Part shown: positions 2,360 through 63,390 of the stretch, in pieces
Layout: each line of letters begins with the position of its first letter
How positions within the stretch are numbered: position 1 is the stretch's first letter
Origin: a virus
Direction: 5' to 3' (one strand)
IMG/VR virus record: IMGVR_UViG_3300028608_000007
Location: 116,544-180,543 of that record
Length of the DNA stretch: 64,000 bases
Program-made: the position numbers and the translations under genes
Notes under the pieces: generated by a model
Databases searched by the model: none
Seen by the model: the letters and a program-made list of their open reading frames with translations, nothing else
What the model was told of the DNA's origin: nothing

Positions 2360-2867
2360 AGAGCTTACGGATCGTCAGATCCACGGCGCCCAGGTAAACC
2401 CAGCTACCGTCTTTGGCCAGCAGTTGCAGCGTCTTGCTTTCGCCAGCAGCCGTTGGTAACACCGCACCGGTTTCGAACTCCAACTCACCAGCGATCAGTT
2501 TGTAGCGATCAGCGATGAGGGTGATGATGCTCTGGAGTGTGTCACCCGTTTGCAGCGTGTAGGTGGTCGACTTGACGATCTCTTCGATATACAGACGACG
2601 GTAGTTCAGCGTCTGCGTACCGTAGAACTCGTTGTTCAGAGTTGCTTCCACCGTGAGGGACGAATTCTTCACGGTGATGTCGCCGCTGGTGTCAATCTGA
2701 AGCAGGTCCTTAAGGACGAAATCATCGAGAGTAAACGACGTGCCGTTGGTCTCGTTGATCTGGTTGATGACGTTCTGAAGCGGGCTTAAAGTGTGATCAA
2801 CTAGCACGTTGATAACTCCTGTTGTAGTAGGGACGTCTATAACGATAGGTGCTCGGCGACGTATCAT
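2358..2867 (-). CDS. Tail-associated paralog (gp131-135-like family), inverted orientation
   Basis: GTQTLNYRRLYI and SWVYLG motifs match the flanking plus-strand paralogs. Confidence 0.55.
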   Translation of the reverse strand: MIRRRAPIVIDVPTTTGVINVLVDHTLSPLQNVINQINETNGTSFTLDDFVLKDLLQIDTSGDITVKNSSLTVEATLNNEFYGTQTLNYRRLYIEEIVKSTTYTLQTGDTLQSIITLIADRYKLIAGELEFETGAVLPTAAGESKTLQLLAKDGSWVYLGAVDLTIRKL

Positions 2868-2917
2868 TTGACGGGACTTAAACCCAAACCCATTTTCTAA
2901 ATGCAGGCGTCTTTGCC

Positions 2918-3448
2918 ATGTACCACATTGGAATGAAATCAGTAGAGCAGTTACTCGCTCTACTTAACGACACCAACGGGTTGTCGTTAACACTTGATGA
3001 CATCCAGTTCAGTACGCCAGTTGCGCTGACCCCAGAGTCTCAGGTAGGCGACGACAATCCTGCCAACACCGAGATTCTGATTGTAGCCAAACCTAATCGA
3101 AAACCGATTGGTGAGGTGAAGGTTCGGTATGATCGGATTGATCTGGCTGACTTTGAAACCCTACGTGACCCGACGGAAATCGAAGTCACACTTCCTTTGA
3201 CCCACGCCCGGTTAATGGAAGCATTCAATACCCATTACGGTTCTGCGTTAGAACTGGAAGACATTGATGTCGCCACTGTCCTACCTGAAGACATTGAGGA
3301 AGAGACCTTTGTTGAGCTGAAAGCCTCTGTAGGCTCCTTGGCTTATCGAGGGGAGATCCTGCTGTCTGTGATCCCAGGTACGATCAAACTCAGCAATGTG
3401 ATCATTGTACGAGCGCTCAGTGGCCTTGAGTATATGGGTCGACCTTAA
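2918..3448 (+). CDS. Tail-associated paralog (gp131-135-like family)
   Basis: GEVKVRYDRIDL and SLAYRG motifs; C-terminal LSGLEY. Confidence 0.55.
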   Translation: MYHIGMKSVEQLLALLNDTNGLSLTLDDIQFSTPVALTPESQVGDDNPANTEILIVAKPNRKPIGEVKVRYDRIDLADFETLRDPTEIEVTLPLTHARLMEAFNTHYGSALELEDIDVATVLPEDIEEETFVELKASVGSLAYRGEILLSVIPGTIKLSNVIIVRALSGLEYMGRP

Positions 3449-3449
3449 T

Positions 3450-3477
3450 AGAGGGGCCTTCGGGCCCTTTTATGCCA
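3450..3477 (+). terminator. Intrinsic terminator
   Basis: GGGGCC-TTCG-GGCCC-TTTTATGCC. Confidence 0.8.
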
Positions 3478-3549
3478 GACTTTCTGTGTATTTTTTAATA
3501 TCTTATGAGTAGGACATACGTCTTACTCTGTTTACCTGTGGAGATCCCC

Positions 3550-4056
3550 ATGAAAATCAATGTCGCTCAAACTGGTGCCGAGAACATTCTGGCTCTGGTC
3601 CTGGACGCCAACCCTGGTCTGTCGCTGACCGCTGCTCAGTTCACTCTGGGCAACCCAAGCGTATTCGTGGGTGCTGGTGGCCGTAACACTCAGGTTACCC
3701 TGACTGCCGTCGAAGGTGAAGGCAAGACTGGTACCAAAACCATCGACTACACCCGTCTGAACCCAGTGACCGGCCCTAACGCCGCTCAAGCTGTGTCTGG
3801 CGTACAAGTCGCTCTGGACGCCACTGACGTACAGATCAAAGCTCAACTGGTTGCCCTGTTCGGCGCAGTTGCTGCTGATGTCGTCGTCTCCGGCCTGGTC
3901 CTGCCAGTAGATGCTGACACCGACGGTGAAATCGTTTTCGCCGCCGCTGCCAACAGCCTGCTGTACGTGGGTCAGACCACCGTCGTGCTGAAAGCTCCGG
4001 TTGAAGACCTGAGTGGCATCGAAGGTCAGATGAACGGCTTCGAACCTGAAGCCTAA
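3550..4056 (+). CDS. Tail-associated paralog (gp131-135-like family)
   Basis: Start moved to ATG 3550 (SD GGAGA); GTKTIDYTRL and SLLYVG motifs; C-terminal MNGFEPEA. Confidence 0.6.
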   Translation: MKINVAQTGAENILALVLDANPGLSLTAAQFTLGNPSVFVGAGGRNTQVTLTAVEGEGKTGTKTIDYTRLNPVTGPNAAQAVSGVQVALDATDVQIKAQLVALFGAVAADVVVSGLVLPVDADTDGEIVFAAAANSLLYVGQTTVVLKAPVEDLSGIEGQMNGFEPEA

Positions 4057-10293: not shown

Positions 10294-10602
10294 TTACTTA
10301 GCAGGGTGGTTCGGTGGAACGCCGATCTTGAAGGCACGGACCCACTTGCGAACCTTGAAGAACTGATACCAGCCCACAACGTAGTTGACGATGATCAGAG
10401 GGATCAACGCCATCATACCGAAGTAGCCAGCGAGGAACAGGAACAACGCTGTACCGGCCGTCATCTTGTAGCGGTCAGGACAGGTAGTGATGAGGAACTT
10501 GACAGCACGACTGTCGTTCTTCTTCTCGAACAGGTAGATTCCACGGAGGACGACGAAGAACCCGAAGACGAGAATGAAGTACATGAAGATAGTGAAGGCC
10601 AT
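10294..10602 (-). CDS. Small membrane protein (2-3 TM segments), first gene after an early promoter
   Basis: Hydrophobic stretches FTIFMYFILVFGFFVVL and ALFLFLAGYFGMMALIPLIIV; SD GGGAG. Confidence 0.75.
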   Translation of the reverse strand: MAFTIFMYFILVFGFFVVLRGIYLFEKKNDSRAVKFLITTCPDRYKMTAGTALFLFLAGYFGMMALIPLIIVNYVVGWYQFFKVRKWVRAFKIGVPPNHPAK

Positions 10603-21912: not shown

Positions 21913-23604
21913 GTGAACCAACCGAATTTTAACCCAGATGAAGTTAAAGGTTACGAAGTCAAACACGTAACTTACACCAAGTCAAACAACCCGGATTCTC
22001 GGGACGATGCGCTGATCATCAAGAAGGTCGCGCACATGAAAAACGGGGATCTGATTCCGTTTGTTGATCTGGAAGTGAACTACAAACGCACGTTCTATTT
22101 GGAGCGTCAGCAGAACTATCAGGAGAAGAAAACTCAACAGAAGCGCAGCAGACTGCAACCGTTCACGTGTACCCAGCGGAACCTGATTCCTGCTATTGGT
22201 CGAGCATTAGGGCGGGGTAGTTTAAAAGGTGGTTTACGGACCATCGCACGCAACCCTTACCTGTACGGTACTGACATCACCAGTGCCACGCTGTACAAGC
22301 AGGACTTCCGCAAAGCGTATCCAGATTGCAACTCCCCTAACCGGGTAGCCGTATTCGACATCGAGACTGATGTGGTCACAGGCGACGGTAGCGAACCGAT
22401 CTGTATGTCGCTCACCTTTAAAGACAAGGTGTATCTGGCGGTTACCAAGAAGTGGATTGGTAGCATTCCAGACTTCGAGAAGAAGGCACACGCAGCAGCG
22501 GACAAGTACCTGAGCGAACACTTCAAAGCTCGGAACATCACCATGGAAGTTCAGGTGGTGGATACTCCGGGTCAAGCGGTGGTGGAAACCTTCAAGCGGG
22601 CTCACGAATGGCAACCAGACTTCGTGTCTGTATGGAACATCAACTTCGACCTTCCAAAGTGCTTGGCGGTGTTGAAGGCTGAGGGGATTGATCCTGCTCA
22701 GGTGTTCTCTGATCCATCCGTACCTGAGGAATACAAGTTCTTCCGTTATAAGGAAGGCAATGCGACCAAGGTAACTGCAACGGGTCGTGTGGATTCCATT
22801 CACCCAGCAGAACGTTGGCACGTAGCCGAATGTCCTGCCAGCTTCTTCTTGATCGACTCGATGTGCGTGTACAAGCGCATTCGTATGGCCAAGCAGAACG
22901 AACCAAGCTACGGCTTGGATGCTGTAATGAAGAAGAACCTCAAGAACCTGGGTAAGCTCAAGTTCGCCGAGGCTGATGCTTATAGCGGTCTGCAATGGCA
23001 CATCTTCATGCAGGAGCACTACAAAGTCGAATACAGCATTTATAACGTCTTCGACTGCATTGGCGTAGAACTGTTAGACGAGAAGATCAAAGACCTACAA
23101 CTGGTTATCTCGACACAATCCAAAGCGTCGGAGTACACCATCTACAACTCGCAACCTAAGCGACTCGTGGATGACTTCTACTTCTTCTGCTTGGAGCGCG
23201 ATTTCGTTCTGGGTTCTTGCTCGGATGAAATGGCGCACGAGTACGACCAGTACGTCACCGACATGAAGGGTTGGATCGTTACGCTACCGTCTCACCAGAC
23301 TGTGGATAACGGGATCAATGTGCTGGAAGAGATGCCAGACGTACGGACCTACATCCGTACGCACGTGGCTGACTTGGACATTGTATCGACTTACCCGAAC
23401 GTACAGGTGATCCTGAACATCTCGCGTGAGACAACTCGTCGTGAGCTGTACAAGATCGCAGGTATCGACGTCCGTACACAACGGATGGCGGGGATCAACC
23501 TGACTGGTGGTCATGTCAACGCTGTAGAGATTGCGTGCTCGATCTACCAAGCACCAAACTTCGACATGTTGCTGGCTGACTTCGAAGCTGAACAGGCGGC
23601 ATAA
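21913..23604 (+). CDS. Split family-B DNA polymerase, exonuclease/motif-A subunit (phiKZ gp82-like)
   Basis: ExoI FDIETD, ExoII WNINFDL, ExoIII YNVFD; polymerase motif A DLDIVSTYP. Confidence 0.85.
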   Translation: MNQPNFNPDEVKGYEVKHVTYTKSNNPDSRDDALIIKKVAHMKNGDLIPFVDLEVNYKRTFYLERQQNYQEKKTQQKRSRLQPFTCTQRNLIPAIGRALGRGSLKGGLRTIARNPYLYGTDITSATLYKQDFRKAYPDCNSPNRVAVFDIETDVVTGDGSEPICMSLTFKDKVYLAVTKKWIGSIPDFEKKAHAAADKYLSEHFKARNITMEVQVVDTPGQAVVETFKRAHEWQPDFVSVWNINFDLPKCLAVLKAEGIDPAQVFSDPSVPEEYKFFRYKEGNATKVTATGRVDSIHPAERWHVAECPASFFLIDSMCVYKRIRMAKQNEPSYGLDAVMKKNLKNLGKLKFAEADAYSGLQWHIFMQEHYKVEYSIYNVFDCIGVELLDEKIKDLQLVISTQSKASEYTIYNSQPKRLVDDFYFFCLERDFVLGSCSDEMAHEYDQYVTDMKGWIVTLPSHQTVDNGINVLEEMPDVRTYIRTHVADLDIVSTYPNVQVILNISRETTRRELYKIAGIDVRTQRMAGINLTGGHVNAVEIACSIYQAPNFDMLLADFEAEQAA

Positions 23605-28670: not shown

Positions 28671-29291
28671 TTAGTGGCGCGACTTTGGATTGATGTCGAT
28701 GCCGGGCAAACGGGATACTGCGGTGAGTAAACGATGTACGTGGGAAACCTGAATGCTGACCCTAGAAGGACCCCTGCCGATTTTCCCACCACGAGTGAGT
28801 TGATCTACTGCTTTGTTAACAGCGATAACCAAACCTTGAATGAACTCGCGCTCTTCTTTCATTGGTTGGAAACGCATTGGGCACAATCTGACGAATTCTT
28901 CAACAGTCCAGCCCATGATGAAGATTTCGCCATTCCTGATGACTACTTCTTCAGCAGGATCAGTCTGCAAGTACTTGAAGTACAGGACTGTTGCGTTGTC
29001 AGTCTTTTGCTTAGGTGGTGGGTAAACTATGTCTCGAAGTTCTTCGATAGTGTTTGGTCGAATCGCTTCAATCAGTTTCATTACCGACGCGGATGGCAAA
29101 GGCTCACGACGCAATTGGTTCCCATGATCAAGTGCGAGTTTGATTTTGAACCCAGTTGGGGAATGTGCAATTGTGAAAGGCGGGTGATGATCTACAGCAA
29201 CGATCGTGTAGTGACTCGCGTTTGAGTACTCCAGATTGTTGTCGTAGTTGTAAATCAGTGCATGGATAAGAAGTCTGACGGCTTCTCGCAT
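28671..29291 (-). CDS. Hypothetical early protein
   Basis: 206 aa; SD AGGAG; first gene after an early promoter. Confidence 0.7.
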   Translation of the reverse strand: MREAVRLLIHALIYNYDNNLEYSNASHYTIVAVDHHPPFTIAHSPTGFKIKLALDHGNQLRREPLPSASVMKLIEAIRPNTIEELRDIVYPPPKQKTDNATVLYFKYLQTDPAEEVVIRNGEIFIMGWTVEEFVRLCPMRFQPMKEEREFIQGLVIAVNKAVDQLTRGGKIGRGPSRVSIQVSHVHRLLTAVSRLPGIDINPKSRH

Positions 29292-29348
29292 GATGTTCTC
29301 CTAAGAACGAAAGGTTAGGGACCGATATAACTCAGTCTATTCACCAGT

Positions 29349-29367
29349 GTAATATGTATCTGAGATT
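29349..29367 (-). promoter_or_regulatory. phiKZ-type early promoter
   Basis: Minus strand AATCTCAGATACATATTAC. Confidence 0.7.
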
Positions 29368-29391
29368 TTTTTGTTTCCGATTTACACGTAT

Positions 29392-29537
29392 GTAGTGAAT
29401 ACAGGCAATGTCAACATTGCTCGCAAGGGGGTGATCCAGCCTTAGTGTGGTCTCCGAATCCTTGTATCGCTGGGAAGCGTAATAAAACGGATTCACGGCT
29501 GCCTGTATCCTGCTCGCCCTTCGGGGCGGGCATTTAT
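29392..29537 (+). ncRNA. Candidate structured ncRNA or structured leader
   Basis: Nested helices ATACAGG/CCTGTAT, CAATG/CATTG, CAGCC/GGCTG, GAATCC/GGATTC; GNRA loops GCAA and GGGA; closing UUCG hairpin; TATG at 29389-29392. Confidence 0.5.
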
Positions 29538-29561
29538 TCCCAAAATCACAGGAAGAACAAC

Positions 29562-30056
29562 ATGTCCACCAAGATGACGATCGATTACGATACGATCATG
29601 CAGGGGCTTGAGAAAGCTGTTGAAGAACGTCGTGTACAAGCAGAGTGGGCTCGCGCAGAAGGCGTGACTCTGCTGAAAGATTTCCGCACCGTGGGACTGA
29701 TCGTACCTCGTCAGTCGGGTCGGACCTACTGTGCACTGCGCCGTCTGGTCTCCAACGAACGTGCAATCATGATTGTCCACAACGAATCCATTCGTGACGT
29801 CATGGCCAGCAACTACACGCACCACTGCGGTAAGGAGATGCCTCGCTCTACCGTAGCGCGCATCTACACCACTAAGGAAGTGCAGAAGGCTATCAAAGCC
29901 GTACAGAATGGCCAGCAGGATATCCTGCTCGCTAACGCTAACGAGACCATCGTTGACGACGCCCTGTACTTCTTCGAGAACGTTCGCCGTAACCAGTTCT
30001 ACAAGTGGCTCCACGATCGCGTTGGTGACGAGCAGTTAATCGTCCTGTTGAGCTAA
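29562..30056 (+). CDS. Hypothetical protein with a terminase-like degenerate P-loop (PRQSGRT)
   Basis: Start at ATG 29562 (SD AGGA); GLIVPRQSGRTY; later TIVDDA. Confidence 0.55.
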   Translation: MSTKMTIDYDTIMQGLEKAVEERRVQAEWARAEGVTLLKDFRTVGLIVPRQSGRTYCALRRLVSNERAIMIVHNESIRDVMASNYTHHCGKEMPRSTVARIYTTKEVQKAIKAVQNGQQDILLANANETIVDDALYFFENVRRNQFYKWLHDRVGDEQLIVLLS

Positions 30057-30093
30057 AAAAAAAGCAGGGGATGCGGCCCCTGCTTTTATGCCC
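30055..30093. terminator. Bidirectional intrinsic terminator
   Basis: A9-GCAGGGG-ATGCGG-CCCCTGC-TTTTATGCC. Confidence 0.85.
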
Positions 30094-30094
30094 A

Positions 30095-30454
30095 TTATAA
30101 ACGGGCACCGGCCTTTTTCAACGCTGCTGTTACCAGAGCGTTTTGCTTTTTGGTGTCTTCGGTCATGAGTTTAAGGAGAGTCGGGCTGGCTTTCACCAAG
30201 TCACTCATCTCAATCTCGAACCGACCATTCTTGCGGATATGCAAGATACCAAGCTGGTACCCGAATTCAATACTGGCGAATTCGATGAAGTCGCCTTCGT
30301 TACAGTAACTGATCGCCAACTGTAACATCCGAGGCAAGGCGGTATCGAAGTACGCGTAACGGCGAACGTCAATGACCTCTTTGGATTTACCGCGAATCAT
30401 GGTTGCAATGACGCGGCGGATGTGGACAGTTTTCTTTTGTTCCGAGGTAGCCAT
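30095..30454 (-). CDS. Hypothetical protein
   Basis: 119 aa with SD-like AGGAA. Confidence 0.65.
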   Translation of the reverse strand: MATSEQKKTVHIRRVIATMIRGKSKEVIDVRRYAYFDTALPRMLQLAISYCNEGDFIEFASIEFGYQLGILHIRKNGRFEIEMSDLVKASPTLLKLMTEDTKKQNALVTAALKKAGARL

Positions 30455-40929: not shown

Positions 40930-42897
40930 TTACTGTCTAGTCAAGTCCCCCATCATCAAGGGGTCCAGTGGGTGGTCAGGACGGTTCTTCAGAATGAAGG
41001 TACGGATGTCTTGGAGCGTAGCCCCTTGACGTTCGTACGCCATGGACGCAGCCAAGCTACGGTTATCCATGTTGTCCTCGTAATAACCAATCTCACCGTT
41101 CTCACGGTCTAGCGGTAAGCGGTGGTCCCGTTTCTCCACGCTCTCCACCATAGTGGACAGAATGATCACCTCAAGGTGCTGGATGTTTACGTTCAGCTTC
41201 GAACTGATCAGCCCGTAGAACGCAAACAATGCTTCCTCGGTGTTCGAGTAGGCATTCGAGGTCTGGTAACGCGAACGTTTGCCACGCGGTTTCCCTTTCC
41301 GGGTTGGGGCCGCTTTGATGAACTTCTCGATCTCGCCCATGTATTCCACCATGTTGGTGTGTTTCATGGGGAGCTTGAACATTACATCATTGTAGTCCCA
41401 GTTGGTCAGGTCAATCACGTAGTCGCCGCGTGTGGTCAGATCCCAACCATTACGCTTGATGTAGATCAACGCTTCTTCTGTCAGGTACGACAGTCGCGAA
41501 CCCATCGAGACCGACAGGTTAACTTTGTCCGCCGTTTCCTCGGGCCCAGGGATTTCCAGGGTGATATCCACGATTTCCGACAGTCGTTCCAGCGGTAGCG
41601 CCCGTACCGTCCGCACCCTGTTCAGGTCAGGCAGTCGTGGTGCGTAATCCGCAGGGATCACCATCTTGATCGGAAGACCAGCGAACTCAGCATTGAGCTT
41701 GACTTCGTTGCCCATTGTACCCAATCGCAAGTACGCCTGATCGTGTTCGTTGATATAGAAATCATCGACCACGGAACTACCATCCAAGTGTTTGGTAGAC
41801 AGAACGCTTTGCGACACCAGCTCACATAAGGTTGTGGCAGAGACGTGACCCAATACAGTGCCAGGCGGAATCGAGAAAGCCAACTCGCCCATGCAGGTGG
41901 AACAGACACCATAACGATCGGGGTGGCGACACTTGAGGACCGTGCGGACCTCGATCTCCGTACCAATCAGGTTACGCTGGTGTTTCAGGATCGGGAACAG
42001 ACCCTCAGGGGTTACCCGATACTTACCTTCCAACGCCTGGAAGTTCCCCGCAGTTACCTTCCAACGCATGGTTCCAGTAGAACCACAGTCGCCGTAGTGC
42101 ACCCGCTGTAGCGTACCACAACCCAACTGGAGCTGGCGGTTGAAGTACTCGGAGTCTGCCACTGGGTCTTTTGCAGCTTCCAACGCTTTGGATGCCGATC
42201 GAGATTCGATCAACGCGTCGTACAGGCTGATCAGACCCTGGGTGTAGTTCCGCATTACCGGATCGTGGAAGATCCGAGAGTCTACGTCAGTCAGGAAGCC
42301 CCGCAGAGAAACCACCTGCAATGTCTGACCGATACTCACCAGCTTAGACTTCACAGCCTTAGCGATTGGGTTGTAGGCCAGTTCATTGGGATCTTTCAAC
42401 ACCGCCGTCACAGCACGATAAGTTTCATCGATGGATTGCTGAGTCGGTTTCGCATTGGCGTTAGCCGCTGCAATCTTCGGATGACGGATTACGTCGATGA
42501 AGTCAGTAATACAGATACTGGCCACATGGCGCTCTTGCATCGTCACGGTGTTGTTATAGATCATCTGCTGCGTATCGTAGATTGCACGCGACCACTCTTC
42601 GTTGTCGTAGACAATCCCGTTAGCAGTACAGTGGTCCACCGCCAAGGAACGCCCAACAGCCATCAGGTCGTTGAATGTATCCTTGGTCAGGCGGTCCCCA
42701 CCCATGTGAGACTTCTTCAGGTGGGGGATTTGCGGGTAGCGCCGGTTGAACAAAGCGCAATACCACACGTAGATCGTGGCTTCACGCTCAACCAGCAGTT
42801 CACCATCATCGTACTCAATGATGAACTTGTCGTCCGGGAAGGTCCAGACATCTTCCTCACTCTGCTGGTAGATCTCGCGAGCAGAATAACGATTCAT
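40930..42897 (-). CDS. rpoC: Non-virion RNA polymerase beta' C-terminal subunit (phiKZ gp74-like)
   Basis: DCGST, Zn site C....YGVCSTCMG, trigger-loop-like SQSVLSTKH; synteny. Confidence 0.85.
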   Translation of the reverse strand: MNRYSAREIYQQSEEDVWTFPDDKFIIEYDDGELLVEREATIYVWYCALFNRRYPQIPHLKKSHMGGDRLTKDTFNDLMAVGRSLAVDHCTANGIVYDNEEWSRAIYDTQQMIYNNTVTMQERHVASICITDFIDVIRHPKIAAANANAKPTQQSIDETYRAVTAVLKDPNELAYNPIAKAVKSKLVSIGQTLQVVSLRGFLTDVDSRIFHDPVMRNYTQGLISLYDALIESRSASKALEAAKDPVADSEYFNRQLQLGCGTLQRVHYGDCGSTGTMRWKVTAGNFQALEGKYRVTPEGLFPILKHQRNLIGTEIEVRTVLKCRHPDRYGVCSTCMGELAFSIPPGTVLGHVSATTLCELVSQSVLSTKHLDGSSVVDDFYINEHDQAYLRLGTMGNEVKLNAEFAGLPIKMVIPADYAPRLPDLNRVRTVRALPLERLSEIVDITLEIPGPEETADKVNLSVSMGSRLSYLTEEALIYIKRNGWDLTTRGDYVIDLTNWDYNDVMFKLPMKHTNMVEYMGEIEKFIKAAPTRKGKPRGKRSRYQTSNAYSNTEEALFAFYGLISSKLNVNIQHLEVIILSTMVESVEKRDHRLPLDRENGEIGYYEDNMDNRSLAASMAYERQGATLQDIRTFILKNRPDHPLDPLMMGDLTRQ

Positions 42898-42906
42898 ACG
42901 ACCTCC

Positions 42907-45084
42907 TTAGGACTCTTCTTTCTTATAGACGAAGCGCATGCCCGCACATTCAAGGATGTGGTTCACGAACACGTTGTTTCGACCGTTACCCACCGGGAAC
43001 TCTTTCCGGTCGATAACTTCCTTGATGTCAGTAGGTTTCGGGGCTCGCATGATGTTTGCCAGGATTTCCTTACCGACTGTCGGGTTGTTGGACTGATCGA
43101 TGATATCTGCCCAGACTTCGCCGCCACAGGTTGCCGCGCCCAGACGCACTTCTGCCTCACCAGTCATCCGCACAGGCTGAGCTGCACCCGGATAGCTGTT
43201 CTTGTCAGACTTGGTGATCTTGGCTGGGATGCCGTGGTGTTGCAGTTTCGCTGCCGATACGCCAGACCAATCGCCACCGGTTTTCTCCAGGACGATGATG
43301 TAAGCGCTACCGATAAGTACGGGTTCGACCGTGGTAACCTCTTTACCGAGATAACCAATGAACTTGACCGGACCGTACACAGGAGGGAATTCCTCCTTCA
43401 ACTGCTCGACCATAGTCGGGTAGTCAACCGGGTTGTTGTTCGGCATCCACAGGTAGATCCCGTCACGCAGTACGGAGAGCACGTGTGGTTCACCAGCGTT
43501 CGGATAGTCCGGCTCCATCATCATCTGCACCATCCACGGCGAACAGATTTGATAGAAGCGCAGCAACGCACTGTACGCTAGCTGTACTTTCTCTGGGTCC
43601 AACCGCACACCAGCTTGTGGTGCTTGGAAGCGCAGCAACGATTTAACCTCCTTAGGAACGTCGCTACCATCACGGTTAAAGCCAAACATTTCACGCAGGT
43701 TCTTGGTCAGACGGTCTGCCGAGGCGTTGATATACGGCTCGTACATACAACCCAAGTTCATACGCTTGATCACGGAATACGGTTCCATGATGATGTCAGC
43801 CCGATTACCCTCAGCATCGACAGGCATACGGTGGGCTGGCCACACTTGGCAGATTACGCCTTTGTTACCGTGACCACCAGAAAGCTTGGCACCATCCGTT
43901 GGGTGGGTGTCGAACTCAATGGTGATTTCCACACGCCAGTCATCCAGGGGTTGACGGCGATAGGTCTTGCTGGCCTGCTGACCCTGTGCGTTAGGTTTGT
44001 TTACGTAGCCCAGTGCTTGGAAGATCAGCTCGTGGAACTCTGGAGTCAACGACAGGTTAGCGCCGTGAGACTTCTTGAGCTTGTAGTAGATGTCCAGCAC
44101 TTTCTGGTAGAACTTAAGGTTCGCCTGATAATACTTGTTCATCTGGCGTTCCATGCCCATCGGTGTTGGAGGATTCCGATTGGTATCCTCGTGATACACC
44201 TGCACGTCAATAACTCGCGCACCCGGTTGAACGTAGGTGAGTTTGTCGTAGACGTAGTCGACTTCTTGCAGAGCACCCACAGACATTTCTACAGGAGCCA
44301 GCAGTGGGTCGTATGGGCGAGTAGCAAACAGCAGACCGTCAGGACGAACGTAGTCGCCAATGTCCGGGAACGGTTTGTACTGTCCTGGATTGTCCTTGTC
44401 GCGATACAGGTTCAGGAACATGTGTTTAGAACCTGCCGACTCGGTGTACTTCTTGAAGCCTTTTGCAACGAGGTGTGGACAAACATCGTCCGCCACAATC
44501 ACGCCGTCCTCAATAACCCCAGGCATCGACATGTACGCCACCTTGAGTTCACGACCCAAGTTATAGTTACCGTCTTTGTCGTGGTTCGAGGAACGTGCCA
44601 CCACGGAACCAGCAGGGATGCTAGCACCGGCATAAAGCTTGGAGGTCACGTCTTTGTTGAACTGGTACTTGAAACCAAAGTACTGGTGTTTGCAGTTAAA
44701 CCGGGGAACCACCAGGACCCCAATCTCTAATGTCTCCGCATCTTCGTAGATGTATACAGTTTCAGGGTTTTCAGCAATGGTGTCCACACCAATGGAAAAC
44801 GGATAGCGTTCGATCTCTGCAATGATGTTCACATTGCGGTCAAACCTTTTCTCAAAGGTAAAGCGACCGAATTCGCGTTCAGTGCCGGTTTGTTGCCGAC
44901 GAGGTGTAGCTCCCTTAATTACCAGCGCTTGACCGTACTGCGAGTTTACCATCTGCACACGAGACGAACTGTTGGCGCGAAGGTGCGTAATAATGCTGCC
45001 TTGGCCGGTGATCTCTGGAAACAGTTGGTAGTCTGTCGCCATCGGGTCCGCGTTCGAATAGTGCGGAATGGGTGTATCGTCCAT
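42907..45084 (-). CDS. rpoB: Non-virion RNA polymerase beta C-terminal subunit (phiKZ gp71-73-like), uninterrupted
   Basis: NSSSRVQM, IEDG, K.SG.HGNKG, RMNLG, GEAE motifs. Confidence 0.9.
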   Translation of the reverse strand: MDDTPIPHYSNADPMATDYQLFPEITGQGSIITHLRANSSSRVQMVNSQYGQALVIKGATPRRQQTGTEREFGRFTFEKRFDRNVNIIAEIERYPFSIGVDTIAENPETVYIYEDAETLEIGVLVVPRFNCKHQYFGFKYQFNKDVTSKLYAGASIPAGSVVARSSNHDKDGNYNLGRELKVAYMSMPGVIEDGVIVADDVCPHLVAKGFKKYTESAGSKHMFLNLYRDKDNPGQYKPFPDIGDYVRPDGLLFATRPYDPLLAPVEMSVGALQEVDYVYDKLTYVQPGARVIDVQVYHEDTNRNPPTPMGMERQMNKYYQANLKFYQKVLDIYYKLKKSHGANLSLTPEFHELIFQALGYVNKPNAQGQQASKTYRRQPLDDWRVEITIEFDTHPTDGAKLSGGHGNKGVICQVWPAHRMPVDAEGNRADIIMEPYSVIKRMNLGCMYEPYINASADRLTKNLREMFGFNRDGSDVPKEVKSLLRFQAPQAGVRLDPEKVQLAYSALLRFYQICSPWMVQMMMEPDYPNAGEPHVLSVLRDGIYLWMPNNNPVDYPTMVEQLKEEFPPVYGPVKFIGYLGKEVTTVEPVLIGSAYIIVLEKTGGDWSGVSAAKLQHHGIPAKITKSDKNSYPGAAQPVRMTGEAEVRLGAATCGGEVWADIIDQSNNPTVGKEILANIMRAPKPTDIKEVIDRKEFPVGNGRNNVFVNHILECAGMRFVYKKEES

Positions 45085-57321: not shown

Positions 57322-59340
57322 TTAGCGGTTCCAGGTCCCGGTGAAGGGAGAGCTGAACAGGCGCGAGCCTTGTTGCTGACCGCCACCGTAGTTGAAGAAG
57401 CCACCAACGTTGTTGGCAACCAGGTGGTTGAGGTCGTAGCCGCCGCGCTGGGACAGGACGTTGTTGTCGTCCAGGCCTTTGGCAGGACGCACGTTCAGAC
57501 CGCAACGTACGATTGCTTCGGACAGCGCTTCCAGGAACCCGTTGTCGAACGACACGCGACGAGCGAAGCCCTTGACGTGGATTTCCGAGGCCAGGAGCTG
57601 GCGCAGGATTTCCTTGCGCTGAGCCAGGCGGATTTCCAGAGGGACCTGCACGTTGCGGTGGGTTTCTTCCCAGGCTTCGACCAGTTTCGGGTTGGTCTTG
57701 CCAGCGAGGTTCAGGATGGCCAGGTAGTCGATTTCACGCAGGTCACGACGATTGCCTTCGCGATCGTAGTAGAAGCCCAGGTGAATGCGGTCTTGGTCGT
57801 CGTAGCACACCGGCTTGCTGGCGTCGAACAGTTGCTGGAAGTGACCCATGGTCAGGTTGTTGGCTGCTTGCAGGATGGTCAGACGCGCATTCTCGTCGCC
57901 GTTGGCGGCCGCGATGTAGGTCTGGTGAATCCAGGACAGCTCGCCAACCTCGGCGATGTCGAGGGTGAAGATCAGCTTCTGGGCGATCAGGGTGTTGATG
58001 AGCTGACGCATTTCGTTGTCACCGAAGTCGGCGGAACGAGTCGGCAGTGCATCAGGCTTGGCGTTCGGATCACCAGTCAGGTTGACTTCGTAACCGACCG
58101 CACCGATGTCTTTCAGATCGACGTCGGTAGCCTTGCCCTTGTTGGCGCGCCAGGTGCCGGTGTACAGGCCGTTGCGGTTCAGACCGAAAGCGGTGGACAG
58201 GGTCAGCAGTTGCAGTTCCATGTTCACGGCGTCGGTCAGGGTGTCGACCGAAGTCATCACCAGACGCGGCTGGTACATCTGAGTCGGCATCATTTGCTGC
58301 TGGCCGAACATACCGAAGGCGTTCTGCTGCGGCTGGAAGCCAGCTTGAGCCGGTTGGTACATCAGGTCAACGTACGCACCCACGCGGGTGAGCTGACGGG
58401 TTTGTTGCAGGCTGAACTGCGAGTCAGCTTGGGACTGCGCGGACATGGTGACGATGATGTCTTCACGTACCGGCATGCCGACCAGGTCTTCACCGTGGGC
58501 ACGAGTGAACTCGACACGAGCGCTCAGTTGGTCACCAGCGCCGACTTCACCCAGGGTGAACGGTTCTTCGGTGCCGCCGAGTTGGCTGTCCATGATGGTG
58601 TAGCAGGCCTGGGTGCTGTTGTGCAGCAGGCGGTTGAAGCGGTTCTCGGTGCTGACTTCAGCTTCGGCCGGAATCACGATGCCACCGGCGTCGTGGATCT
58701 GAGCGTTCACGCCGAAGCTGTTGATGACGAACTGCTCCAGAACTTGCCAGTACGACTTGTTCAGGTAGATGTCACCAGGCACGATGTCGACTTCGACGGT
58801 GGTGCCGCCCAGGTTGACACTGTTCGGGTCCAGCGGCGCACCGCTCGATTCGATCAGCATGCTGTAGACCGCGATGTGGTCTTGGCCCTGGAAGTTTTCG
58901 TGGTAGCAGACCAGGATGCTGGAGAAGGTCACTTTGGACTGGTTGTTGTCCAGTACCAGGATGGTGAACTCTTTCTTCTGCTGTTCGGTCAGCACTTTGG
59001 CTGCACGTTCTTTCAGGCCGGTCTGGATGGTCTGAACGTCTTCACCGGACATGTTCCGAGGAACAGGACGACGGTGGTTGGCGTTGACGTCGAGGACCGA
59101 ACGGCCACGGCTGCCGACGCGGGAGTTTTGCTGGTTCATCTGAGCACCTGCGTTGAAAGGTTGTTGCGGTTGAGCGTTGCCACCGTTCGGCTGCTGTTGC
59201 TGACCGGCCGGTTGTTGTGGTTGCTGGGCTTGTTCAGCGCCCTGCGGATTCATGCCTGCTTTCAGCATGGCGTCTGCCATTGCGCTGTTCGCTGGTTGGT
59301 TCCCCTGACTCTGGCCAGGTTGATTGCGTTTGACGGACAT
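57322..59340 (-). CDS. chmA: Chimallin, major phage nuclear shell protein (ChmA/PhuN; phiKZ gp54-like)
   Basis: Start at ATG 59340 (SD AAGGA); FTILVLD...SSILV, DLKDIGAVG, RRDLREIDYLAILN match recalled 201phi2-1 gp105 segments; directly upstream of the gp55 homolog; extreme codon bias; early promoter. Confidence 0.88.
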   Translation of the reverse strand: MSVKRNQPGQSQGNQPANSAMADAMLKAGMNPQGAEQAQQPQQPAGQQQQPNGGNAQPQQPFNAGAQMNQQNSRVGSRGRSVLDVNANHRRPVPRNMSGEDVQTIQTGLKERAAKVLTEQQKKEFTILVLDNNQSKVTFSSILVCYHENFQGQDHIAVYSMLIESSGAPLDPNSVNLGGTTVEVDIVPGDIYLNKSYWQVLEQFVINSFGVNAQIHDAGGIVIPAEAEVSTENRFNRLLHNSTQACYTIMDSQLGGTEEPFTLGEVGAGDQLSARVEFTRAHGEDLVGMPVREDIIVTMSAQSQADSQFSLQQTRQLTRVGAYVDLMYQPAQAGFQPQQNAFGMFGQQQMMPTQMYQPRLVMTSVDTLTDAVNMELQLLTLSTAFGLNRNGLYTGTWRANKGKATDVDLKDIGAVGYEVNLTGDPNAKPDALPTRSADFGDNEMRQLINTLIAQKLIFTLDIAEVGELSWIHQTYIAAANGDENARLTILQAANNLTMGHFQQLFDASKPVCYDDQDRIHLGFYYDREGNRRDLREIDYLAILNLAGKTNPKLVEAWEETHRNVQVPLEIRLAQRKEILRQLLASEIHVKGFARRVSFDNGFLEALSEAIVRCGLNVRPAKGLDDNNVLSQRGGYDLNHLVANNVGGFFNYGGGQQQGSRLFSSPFTGTWNR

Positions 59341-59425
59341 CTCGTGTTCCTTTTCATTGGGGTGGGCACTACGACACACCATTTGCCTATGATCTATTTA
59401 TTTACATCGGCATGATGTCACAAGG

Positions 59426-61068: not shown

Positions 61069-61112
61069 GAAACGGGGAAGCCGCAAGGCCTCCCCGTTTC
61101 CCTTTATGCCGC
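61069..61112. terminator. Bidirectional intrinsic terminator
   Basis: GAAACGGGGAAGCC-GCAA-GGCCTCCCCGTTTC-CCTTTATGCCG. Confidence 0.85.
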
Positions 61113-63332
61113 GGCAGACGCTGGAACAAAGTCCGAAACCAACTTGGTATTGTTGTCGTTAGACAAGAACACGCCGAGCGATTCCAAGATCAGATAGAAC
61201 GGTCGGACTGTAGAGTAGACCAGTTTACGAATGTTCATTGCTGACAATACTTCTTTTGGCAGACCCGTCAACTCCACAACATCCTTAGGCAGCAGCAACG
61301 TGGTAGCGTTGGTTTTGCCTGCGTAGGTTGCCATCAGAGTTTCTTTGATCTGTGGATCTTCGATACCTTCCAACCATTGTTGCAGTGCCGTTTTGTTTGG
61401 CAGGTCGAGGGATACCTTGATCGCAGAGTACGGAGGCTTAGGGGCTTCTCCGTATTTTGGACGGAACACACGCTCCCACATGAGGTAGTGTTGGTACGGA
61501 GATTGACCTGGGTTGACGTATGCCGCCGGGTCTTTCACCGAAGTCCGCGCCAAGTAGGTAGACTCAGCACGCATCACAGAACCAATGATGCCGTGTTCGA
61601 TATCCGCCACACGTTGCATGATTTCTGTAATACGGATCTTCTTGCCTTCGATTACGGTGTCCATGATCTCACACATGGTCGACGTAACCTGCTTCATGAT
61701 CGCTGGTGGACAGTTGGAGTCTTTGAGGTAAACCCCTTTGATCTCTTCATCCAGTTCAGCAAACACGTTACCTTCTTTGGCAGCCTTGTAGGCGTAGTAG
61801 TGCTTAGCCATCGAAGTCAGCGAGAACACCGAGAATGCAAACTCGTTCTTCATCGCCAATACGTTCAGCTTCTCAGGTACCACACCGAGTGTAGTCGAGA
61901 GCATAGCCAGAACGTGAATGATCGACTGCGTTGCCAGGTAAACCATGGTGTAATCCACGGCAAACGCGGTTTCGCTAAAGTCAATCTTGCCGGTGTACCA
62001 CTCCACCCAGTTCTGTACGGTAAAGATCGTAGAGTCTGTGTCGGAGGTAATTGCTACGTGGCGGACCGAGTCACGAATCCATGCAACCGAAGCTGGCATG
62101 TTGTCCGATACCCAGAACGCTTTGATCAGGTATTGGTATTCGTTCAATACCGCATGGATGTTCTTGATGGTTGCCCCGATCAAGCAGTAGTTCGCAGGGT
62201 TAACTTCCAGCAAACGACCCAGACCCAAGCCTTGCAGCTCCTTAGCACACAGGAGGCTCACAAACGCTTTCAAGTCCGCATCCATACCCTTGACATAGGT
62301 CTTGGCTTCATCCAGCTCCAGAGGCACCTCAGCCTTCATAGAGAGACGAGCCATGAACACACGCATCGGACCATCGTTGAACTTTGCCAAGTGCCAGCAA
62401 TCGCCGACATAAGCAAAGGCTGCCCGTTGCAGATCGTTCATACCCTCAACCAACTTACGGATCTCTTCGACCTGACGTTTGTTGGTCCAGTAGTGATGAG
62501 TGGAGTACAGGATCAACTCCATAACTTCATCTACAGTCGGCGCACGGAAACCGTACAGCGACATGGCTTTCTCGATCAACTCGTAGTCAACATGACCAAT
62601 GATGCTGACGATGTTCGCCTTCACTACGTCAGGGCACCAGTAGTGACGGTTGCCTGCCAAGAACTTCTCGTTGTTGGCGTTACCCAGGCTGGTGGCTACA
62701 CGACAGGTCGAAGTCAGACTCGAGTGAGCAGACTTGTTGTGCAGGATCGTGGAGGTCGACGCTTGTGCCCCGGACAGACTGTTGTTCGCAATCTTGTACG
62801 TGGTTTGTTCGTTCTCCTTAAGTTCTGCCAGTTCTTCCATCTGTACAGCATGGCGGCGGAACTTCTTGACTGCTTCAACATCCCCGGCTTTCTCAGCCTC
62901 ATCTGCTTTCAGATTGGATTCTTGTTGCTCCATCTGCGCATTGTGACCTTCCTTCTTTACAGCACCCCGGCCCACAATGTTACCGGTGATGTATTCCGAC
63001 AGTAGAGAAGGGATCACGTCCGGGTGTTCGTACACAGTCATGGACGGTGCAAACAACCAGTTGTTGTCCTTGATGTCCTTGAGGTAAGTCGAGTAAGTGA
63101 TCTCCATACGCTCACGGTCACCGACTTTGTTGCGGTGCAGGCAGAACAGAGCTGGGTCTTTGATCTCGAATTTACCACCAGGACCTGTCACACGGTGAAT
63201 GTACCCTTGACAGTCTTCCAACGGCTTCCCCGTACGAACATGCAAAAAGATCGCCATGTCTCGACGGTAGTTAGCCAGAATATCTAGGTCGCGCTTATAA
63301 GCGGACGCTGGCTTGATGAAATGGTTTTCCAT
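61104..63332 (-). CDS. Split family-B DNA polymerase, motif B/C subunit (phiKZ gp50-like)
   Basis: Start at ATG 63332 (SD GGGAG); motif B Q...KIANNSLSG, motif C SDTDS, KNE...K.YY, KG. Confidence 0.88.
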   Translation of the reverse strand: MENHFIKPASAYKRDLDILANYRRDMAIFLHVRTGKPLEDCQGYIHRVTGPGGKFEIKDPALFCLHRNKVGDRERMEITYSTYLKDIKDNNWLFAPSMTVYEHPDVIPSLLSEYITGNIVGRGAVKKEGHNAQMEQQESNLKADEAEKAGDVEAVKKFRRHAVQMEELAELKENEQTTYKIANNSLSGAQASTSTILHNKSAHSSLTSTCRVATSLGNANNEKFLAGNRHYWCPDVVKANIVSIIGHVDYELIEKAMSLYGFRAPTVDEVMELILYSTHHYWTNKRQVEEIRKLVEGMNDLQRAAFAYVGDCWHLAKFNDGPMRVFMARLSMKAEVPLELDEAKTYVKGMDADLKAFVSLLCAKELQGLGLGRLLEVNPANYCLIGATIKNIHAVLNEYQYLIKAFWVSDNMPASVAWIRDSVRHVAITSDTDSTIFTVQNWVEWYTGKIDFSETAFAVDYTMVYLATQSIIHVLAMLSTTLGVVPEKLNVLAMKNEFAFSVFSLTSMAKHYYAYKAAKEGNVFAELDEEIKGVYLKDSNCPPAIMKQVTSTMCEIMDTVIEGKKIRITEIMQRVADIEHGIIGSVMRAESTYLARTSVKDPAAYVNPGQSPYQHYLMWERVFRPKYGEAPKPPYSAIKVSLDLPNKTALQQWLEGIEDPQIKETLMATYAGKTNATTLLLPKDVVELTGLPKEVLSAMNIRKLVYSTVRPFYLILESLGVFLSNDNNTKLVSDFVPASAAA

Positions 63333-63390
63333 TAGTGCTCCCGAAAGCGGTAGTCCCACATTCTATTACCCACGGACAGATTTAAATACT

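Follow-up and report, generated by a model that had tools for sequence, protein, structure and literature searches.

The gap between two divergent genes of a phiKZ-like jumbo phage very likely holds a functional, stand-alone RNA gene, which encodes a structured small non-coding RNA of ~150 nt (29389-29540, + strand; predicted transcript). The structured RNA family to which it belongs is new and well supported, and neither Rfam nor phage annotations include it. The predicted fold of the RNA is a three-way junction in which a closing stem (P1) is joined by a hairpin (P2) and by a P5/P6 arm that ends in a GNRA loop. Its only conserved unpaired run is complementary to the 3' tail of 16S rRNA, and, judging from sequence comparison, we slightly favor the joint reading that the RNA is a stand-alone sRNA and that this block pairs with the 16S tail. 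The phage would then probably grip host 30S subunits with an RNA. More tentatively, and with somewhat less than even confidence, we propose a dedicated antisense RNA that clamps the host anti-Shine-Dalgarno (anti-SD) tail, serving either as a ribosome-targeting takeover factor or as a ribosome-protecting factor; if this clamp is real, it would be of a class undescribed for any virus of bacteria.

Locus and gene-like anatomy

The window, i.e. the whole stretch of 64,000 nt analyzed here, lies at the end of an IMG/VR virus record of 180.5 kb. It encodes the nuclear-shell protein chimallin (57322-59382, - strand) as well as split multisubunit RNA polymerase beta subunits (two beta-type) and two DNA polymerases, with the polymerase genes at 40930-45084 (-), 21913-23604 (+), and 61104-63359 (-). 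Chimallin, the split RNA polymerase, and the DNA polymerases together identify a nucleus-forming, phiKZ-like jumbo phage. Its chimallin is ~25-33% identical to that of any named phage, indicating a distant relation.

The RNA element lies inside a 270-nt gap (29292-29561), at the divergent junction that an earlier note, made from the sequence alone, had pointed out. Both flanking genes are outside the RNA: the leftward gene (28671-29291, -) encodes a protein of 206 aa without family match, and the rightward gene (29562-30056, +) a protein of 164 aa and unknown function. The latter had been taken for an orphan, but it belongs to phrog_2586 and has relatives in phage 201phi2-1 and Erwinia phage AH06. 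Just past this downstream gene, we observed a terminator hairpin (11 bp, long T run; 30060-30087, -) and a sigma-70-like promoter match (11/12; 30094-30121, -). Back-to-back with the RNA, an AT-rich stretch with a TATTAC motif (29340-29375, -), which is kept in close relatives, is likely to be an early-type promoter of the leftward gene. A similar motif, CTATATTAC, is found just 3' of the RNA terminator in phiKZ (locus L081, ~1668-1680) and Psa21 (locus L083, ~1655-1670); the TATTAC-type motif resembles phiKZ-like early promoters.

All helices and elements drawn by eye in the earlier note are indeed present in the sequence. A TATG motif (29389-29392, +), reportedly the mark of phiKZ late promoters, is located 6 nt 5' of P1 and may be the promoter or start region for the phage RNA polymerase. 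The 5' arm of P1 (29399-29405) pairs with its 3' arm (29502-29508) and closes the three-way junction. It is followed by the P2 hairpin (29406-29419; 5 bp, UCAA loop), by the conserved single-stranded block of 17 nt (29425-29441), and by the P5/P5b/P6 arm (29456-29494), in which P5 (29456-29461 with 29489-29494), P5b (29462-29465 with 29482-29485), and P6 (29468-29471 with 29476-29479) follow one another below a GGGA loop of the GNRA type (29472-29475). The predicted RNA extends to the end of the U-rich run of a terminator (29511-29539), and the UUCG hairpin that the earlier note had described here (29511-29532; 9 bp) was picked up together with its U-rich run by a terminator scan; its loop is kept in relatives.

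The main support for the fold comes from comparison, not from folding of the single sequence. The 152-nt stretch folds at -54.4 kcal/mol, which is better than shuffled sequences only to a modest degree (z = -2.2; 4 of 200 shuffles equally good), and the opposite strand folds about equally well (z = -2.6). Because both strands fold modestly better than chance, thermodynamics alone decides nothing. The Rfam scan that the note had proposed (Rfam 15; the whole window at the gathering threshold and 29250-29620 at E<=10) returned chance-level matches only, with no riboswitch family matched and no known ribozyme family at E<=10 in 29250-29620, leaving self-cleavage unsupported. Four related or side loci likewise gave nothing in Rfam, so that the statement that the element matches no known family is true for Rfam 15. 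A blastn search with 1.1 kb around the element revealed nothing in phages at E<=1e-5. Only when the query was shortened to 33 nt and E<=10 was allowed did the block emerge in 201phi2-1, PhiPA3, Viktualia, and several PhiPA3-like phages, in intergenic regions that carry no annotation. In the literature, the 15-mer or its complement appeared in none of the papers searched, and targeted searches gave no account of such a phage RNA.

Covariation, conservation, and phage range

The covariation check on homologues called for in the earlier note was performed on 21 distinct sequences. Their alignment was made with a covariance model and leans towards structure, which is why a control with slid partners is quoted: 94.4% of the cells can form standard pairs. 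This share drops to 29-41% if the 3' partners are displaced by 1-3 columns, and column shuffles give 68%. Double changes were present in 22 of 25 pairs, and the covariation score of 0.684 (0.233 when shuffled) was reached by none of 500 shuffles; a 15-sequence alignment gave a similar result. Covariation was seen in P1 (double changes in 4 of 6 modelled pairs; 97.6% of cells pair), in P2 (5/5; 92.8%), whose stem length and loop vary between groups, and in P5 (6/6), P5b (3/4), and P6 (4/4). These helices are visible by eye in the model-guided alignment. MAFFT alignments mis-register P1, P2, and P5 between groups, and RNAalifold on these recovered P1 and P6 only; model-guided alignments were therefore used. 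The group of phiKZ, PhiPA3, and 201phi2-1 carries an extra hairpin between P1 and the terminator.

Two further helices of the earlier note were not supported by this analysis. P3 (CUC/GGG with a GCAA loop) can pair in 78% of cells and P4 (CAGCC/GGCUG) in 65%, neither of them better than shuffles, and both run through the 16S-complementary block, which the note had missed. Of the two GNRA loops on which it had remarked, the P6 loop was upheld, with its G and A invariant among the well-occupied columns of the 21 sequences (the phiKZ loop differs), whereas the GCAA loop falls with P3. The central proposal of a novel structured ncRNA was borne out by strong conservation, by covariation, and by the lack of an Rfam family.

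A search of IMG/VR with the 17-mer, allowing R at two positions, returned 65 loci. Seventeen of these share one architecture, consisting of TATG or TATAG, closing stem, hairpin, block, GNRA-loop arm, closing-stem half, and terminator, but are very different in sequence elsewhere; they form four groups and lie mostly on contigs of 230-325 kb. Two covariance models were built. The first (R1) comprised close relatives only, with a hand-written structure, and was used to align the other groups; the second (R2) was a broader rebuild from the groups aligned with R1 and was used for whole-genome scans. The core of the window's RNA (29400-29507) scores 135 bits with R1 and 108 bits with R2, to which it aligns at full length. 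Covariance-model searches revealed one copy per genome in phiKZ, PhiPA3, 201phi2-1, Psa21, Noxifer, DT01, D6, and RVTF4. Whole-genome scans with R1 had missed phiKZ and Psa21, and R2 recovered both. The phiKZ match (R2, E 9e-7) lies between gp203 and gp204, the PhiPA3 copy between gp232 and gp233, and the 201phi2-1 copy between gp304 and gp305. In NC_004629 (phiKZ), NC_028999 (PhiPA3), and NC_010821 (201phi2-1), these loci are at ~212,850-213,036, ~216,213-216,391, and ~229,016-229,201, respectively, all on the + strand. Phabio gave a weak R2 match (E 0.34). Psa21, DT01, D6, RVTF4, and Phabio were outside the R2 training set.

R2 whole-genome scans found no copy in 11 other chimallin phages, namely EL, OBP, Goslar, RAY, AH06, LucasX, RTH11, RSL2, FLC9, SA002, and Eowyn. 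All named carriers infect Pseudomonas, and the nine chimallin phages of other hosts that were scanned are without the RNA, as are two Pseudomonas phages, EL and OBP. In bacterial genomes, the exact 16-mer has at least 120 matches, which is roughly the chance expectation for 596 Gb. As a specificity control, 80 bacterial loci with such a chance 16-mer scored at most 26 bits, compared to 29-108 bits for family members. Since none of the 80 is a family member, 16-mer loci are uninformative about the host.

Every family member has TATG or TATAG 0-7 nt before P1 and a terminator of its own, while the neighboring genes differ, with no conserved adjacent protein gene. Differing context, a single copy per genome, and an own TATG/TATAG and terminator together argue for an independent gene. 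Most groups show, after the terminator stem, a conserved U-rich run ending in UAUGCC (e.g. L052, L063, L065, L071, L081), which contains TATG again; in the window, the U-rich run is UUUAUUCC instead. It may be that the tail of the terminator also serves the following transcription unit as a late-type start motif.

The independent setting of the family also bears on the leader function that the earlier note had considered, taken here as a cis-acting attenuator, riboswitch, or thermosensor of the gene at 29562-30056, with 29511-29532 as a conditional terminator and P1/P2 as the switch. The element is indeed on the same strand, 22 nt 5' of that gene and with a terminator at its end, and ONT-cappable-seq classes many jumbo-phage small RNAs as 5'UTR-derived products of premature termination (PMC11512511; PMC10914365). 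Moreover, the alternative pairing of P1 and P2 noticed earlier exists in the minimum free energy (MFE) fold of this sequence, which extends P1 at the expense of P2. However, this pairing is not conserved and P2 covaries, so that the suggested switch is not supported. The downstream genes differ across the family, so that the RNA is not linked to one downstream gene family, and in L015, L016, and L018 the RNA is followed by an apparent second, oppositely oriented terminator rather than by a gene start. There is no conserved terminator/anti-terminator alternative, the terminator drifting freely by compensatory change, and riboswitch families are not matched. We consider a leader very improbable.

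Among close relatives, the RNA core is nearly base-identical in the IMG/VR contigs L003, L004, and L005. The downstream protein, in contrast, has only 67-69% aa identity in two of the contigs, and L003 and L004 carry another upstream gene. The terminator stem differs in all three contigs by compensatory changes only, with the UUCG loop kept. Likewise, four sequencing runs from other studies match 29381-29510 without a difference, and paired changes start in the terminator arms. In total, all or part of 29200-29800 is present in 24 public runs, which come from 19 studies of soil, rhizosphere, aquatic, wastewater, plant, and food samples. A single run, perhaps that of the source sample, contains every sampled word, and the others have between a fifth and a third, or less. 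Among the four runs examined, the matched part consists of the RNA and the first 55-70 nt of the downstream gene, on contigs that are short, of low depth, and probably derived from DNA. The contigs of three runs break off at 29381 with no loose ends; as a sign of the RNA 5' end, this is weak at best.

These close relatives also speak to the idea that the locus is translated, either as a small mRNA or as an N-terminal part added to the downstream gene, starting from GTG 29445 with an extended SD as in rreB/rreR. This GTG lies 3 nt after the block, and in the window and L004 it opens a frame of 203 aa that continues without a shift into the downstream gene; rreB likewise combines a 17-nt SD with a GTG start (PMC5711450). 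In L003, however, the GTG frame differs from that of the downstream gene, and groups B and C of the family, PhiPA3, phiKZ, and Noxifer lack a start codon at a usable distance past the block. In addition, the supposed coding part changes by RNA compensation and not by synonymous drift, and it contains the terminator hairpin. We regard this explanation as even less probable than a leader. The 203-aa frame through RNA and terminator (29445-30056, +) was accordingly rejected as coding, based on the L003 frame and the RNA-like changes. Gene callers would be led by it to extend the downstream gene across the RNA; translation of this gene begins in fact at ATG 29562, which has a weak SD.

A conserved unpaired block complementary to the 16S rRNA tail

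The block at 29425-29441 pairs at 17 of 17 positions, including one G·U, with the last 17 nt of Pseudomonas-type 16S rRNA (~1525-1541, E. coli numbering). It equals the universal reverse primer sequence with a single A-to-G change, which still allows the G·U pair. The Pseudomonas 16S end was read from seven rRNA copies of one genome and includes the GGCUGG version of the helix-45 base. Across the 21 sequences, the block comprises 13 contiguous invariant columns and one A/G column. In total, 15 of 50 well-occupied unpaired columns are invariant (13 in the block and the G and A of the GNRA loop), compared to 4 of 50 paired ones.

Block positions 2-14 are constant except for position 5, which is A or G, both of which keep the pair with a U in 16S rRNA. 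Position 1, also opposite a U, is A or G, with the pair kept, or C in Noxifer, with the pair lost. At the other end, position 15 is a G facing a C and is changed to U in Phabio, whereas positions 16 and 17, both facing a G, are C or U with pairing kept; A at position 16 (Phabio) or at position 17 (DT01 and Phabio) abolishes the pair. Every interior change thus keeps pairing, and mismatches are confined to the two duplex ends, of which the 3' end of the block is where pairing would need to invade helix 45. The predicted duplex of block and 16S tail amounts to ~-35 kcal/mol, compared to 5.5-8.3 kcal/mol for opening the block. The G-run of the block could be masked in part by a C-rich run that is conserved directly 5' of P5.

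Alternatively, the RNA could be a genuine structured sRNA whose block serves another partner, such as a protein of phage or host that recognizes the sequence, another RNA, or a factor that binds ribosome-binding sites and would be drawn to the block as an SD mimic and decoy, with the 16S match being incidental or mimicry only. An invariant unpaired strand is equally expected of a protein-binding site, and the scaffold with its invariant GNRA G and A suggests tertiary or protein contacts. Furthermore, the block is not predicted to be especially accessible (mean unpaired probability 0.39-0.56; opening energy around the median of 14-nt windows), and the genes of the phage itself need a free anti-SD. 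On the other hand, 17 consecutive positions match one specific, functionally exposed rRNA segment, and the variation is of the kind expected for this duplex, with only A and G, both able to pair with U, at position 5, mostly pairing changes in the flanks, and mismatches at the ends. Neither another copy of the block nor another site complementary to it was found in the phage's own 180-kb record, and no neighboring protein gene is conserved. Overall, a different partner appears rather unlikely, though clearly less so than a leader or an mRNA.

For pairing with the 16S tail, the preferred reading, the following course can be envisaged. Transcription would probably start at the TATG and stop at the RNA's own hairpin terminator. 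The three-way junction would present a long unpaired strand between P2 and P5 that carries the 14-17-nt block, a complement of the anti-SD sequence and the first bases of helix 45. The folded scaffold would hold the block out, and perhaps bind a protein, while the RNA would base-pair in trans with the 16S tail on host 30S subunits. Bound in this way, the RNA may occupy the mRNA-docking site, so that SD-dependent initiation would be blocked or re-tuned, and/or it may shield the 16S 3' end, as a cap, from 3' exonucleases or toxins.

Several observations limit this model. The phage's genes use SD sequences (56% of 66 ORFs with dG <= -4.4, compared to 21% in the control), so that a plain global anti-SD sponge would also hurt phage translation, and timing, stoichiometry, or a protective role must be invoked. 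The pairing-preserving changes in the block are transitions, which are common anyway, and the last 4-5 pairs require opening of the helix-45 base. Because the hosts of all named carriers are Pseudomonas with a single 16S tail sequence, there is no variation of the host tail with which the block could be compared.

The 17-mer search also uncovered loci outside the family. In L010 (3016-3032, +) and ~25 other small IMG/VR contigs (including L012, L013, L017, L019, L020, L022, L027, L033, L034, and L036), a perfect 17-nt complement of the 16S tail is embedded in intergenic DNA of a second conserved type, unrelated to the first. The genes on either side of the L010 17-mer are at 2571-2882 (+) and 3140-3700 (-), the next ATG is 24 nt off, and this context has no Rfam match; it may represent an independent phage RNA of like kind. 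A third conserved context, shared by L014, L028, and L038, has the 17-mer in its enterobacterial form (CCAACC, not CCAGCC). Finally, in L025 (IMGVR_UViG_651053022_000007) the terminal 17 nt of E. coli-type 16S rRNA occur twice, in opposite orientations (10477-10493, +; 2440-2456, -), each time joined to the start of a 16S-23S spacer; the two copies bracket ~8 kb of a 92.8-kb 'viral' contig. These copies look like rRNA-operon ends, outside the jumbo-phage RNA family.

Comparison with known RNAs

The closest parallel is provided by rreB/rreR, small mRNAs of Alphaproteobacteria (Hahn et al. 2016, PMC5711450). Like the phage RNA, they measure ~150-165 nt and carry ~17 nt of complementarity to the 16S 3' end. 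The rreB RNA (165 nt, 17-nt extended SD) co-sediments with 30S subunits; strong co-sedimentation depends on the 5' extension of the SD, and the long SD impedes translation (PMC5711450). The phage RNA shares the complementarity of at least 16 nt to the 16S 3' end that characterizes rreB/rreR. However, these are chromosomal and defined by a conserved peptide ORF of 14-18 aa with a start codon at SD spacing, whereas the phage RNA is phage-encoded, has no conserved start codon after the block across groups and no conserved ORF, folds into a covarying three-way junction, and has only the block as shared sequence. By analogy, the phage RNA would work like the rreB/rreR kind without being a member of it. 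An extended SD-like run is also part of the consensus of Rfam RF01867 (Caulobacter sRNA CC2171), but membership in this family was rejected, since the match, which is confined to the block, reaches 12 bits (E 2.6) compared to a gathering threshold of 75 bits.

In Bacillus, some 5' UTRs, such as that of cry3A, contain STAB-SD elements, SD-like sequences that are unused for initiation and are proposed to dock 30S subunits. They act in cis and stabilize their own long mRNAs in Gram-positives. The phage RNA, in contrast, ends at its own terminator and stands alone.

Small RNAs have been reported by transcriptomics for the same jumbo phages, including 201phi2-1 sRNA005 and the phiKZ sRNA upstream of gp182, the former conserved across genera upstream of the gp182/gp277 tail gene (PMC11512511), as well as 3'UTR_PHIKZ298 and 5'UTR-p40 of phiKZ (PMC8545117). 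These lie at other loci (gp277/gp182, PHIKZ297-298, and p40) than the RNA described here, which is found at gp203-204 in phiKZ and gp304-305 in 201phi2-1. Grad-seq revealed a shift of phage mRNAs and tRNAs onto ribosomal fractions, the cause of which is unknown (PMC8545117). The RNA is present in the three best-studied nucleus-forming phages, phiKZ, PhiPA3, and 201phi2-1, and, if the pairing holds true, it would be the first phage RNA known to target the mRNA-docking site of the ribosome directly. Even if the 16S reading fails, a well-supported new RNA family with 22 of 25 covarying pairs would stand. In its design, the RNA resembles classical trans-acting sRNAs, with a conserved single-stranded seed, a structured body, and a 3' terminator hairpin, but it differs from them in that its putative target is an rRNA rather than an mRNA and in that its seed of 14-17 nt is invariant across genera.
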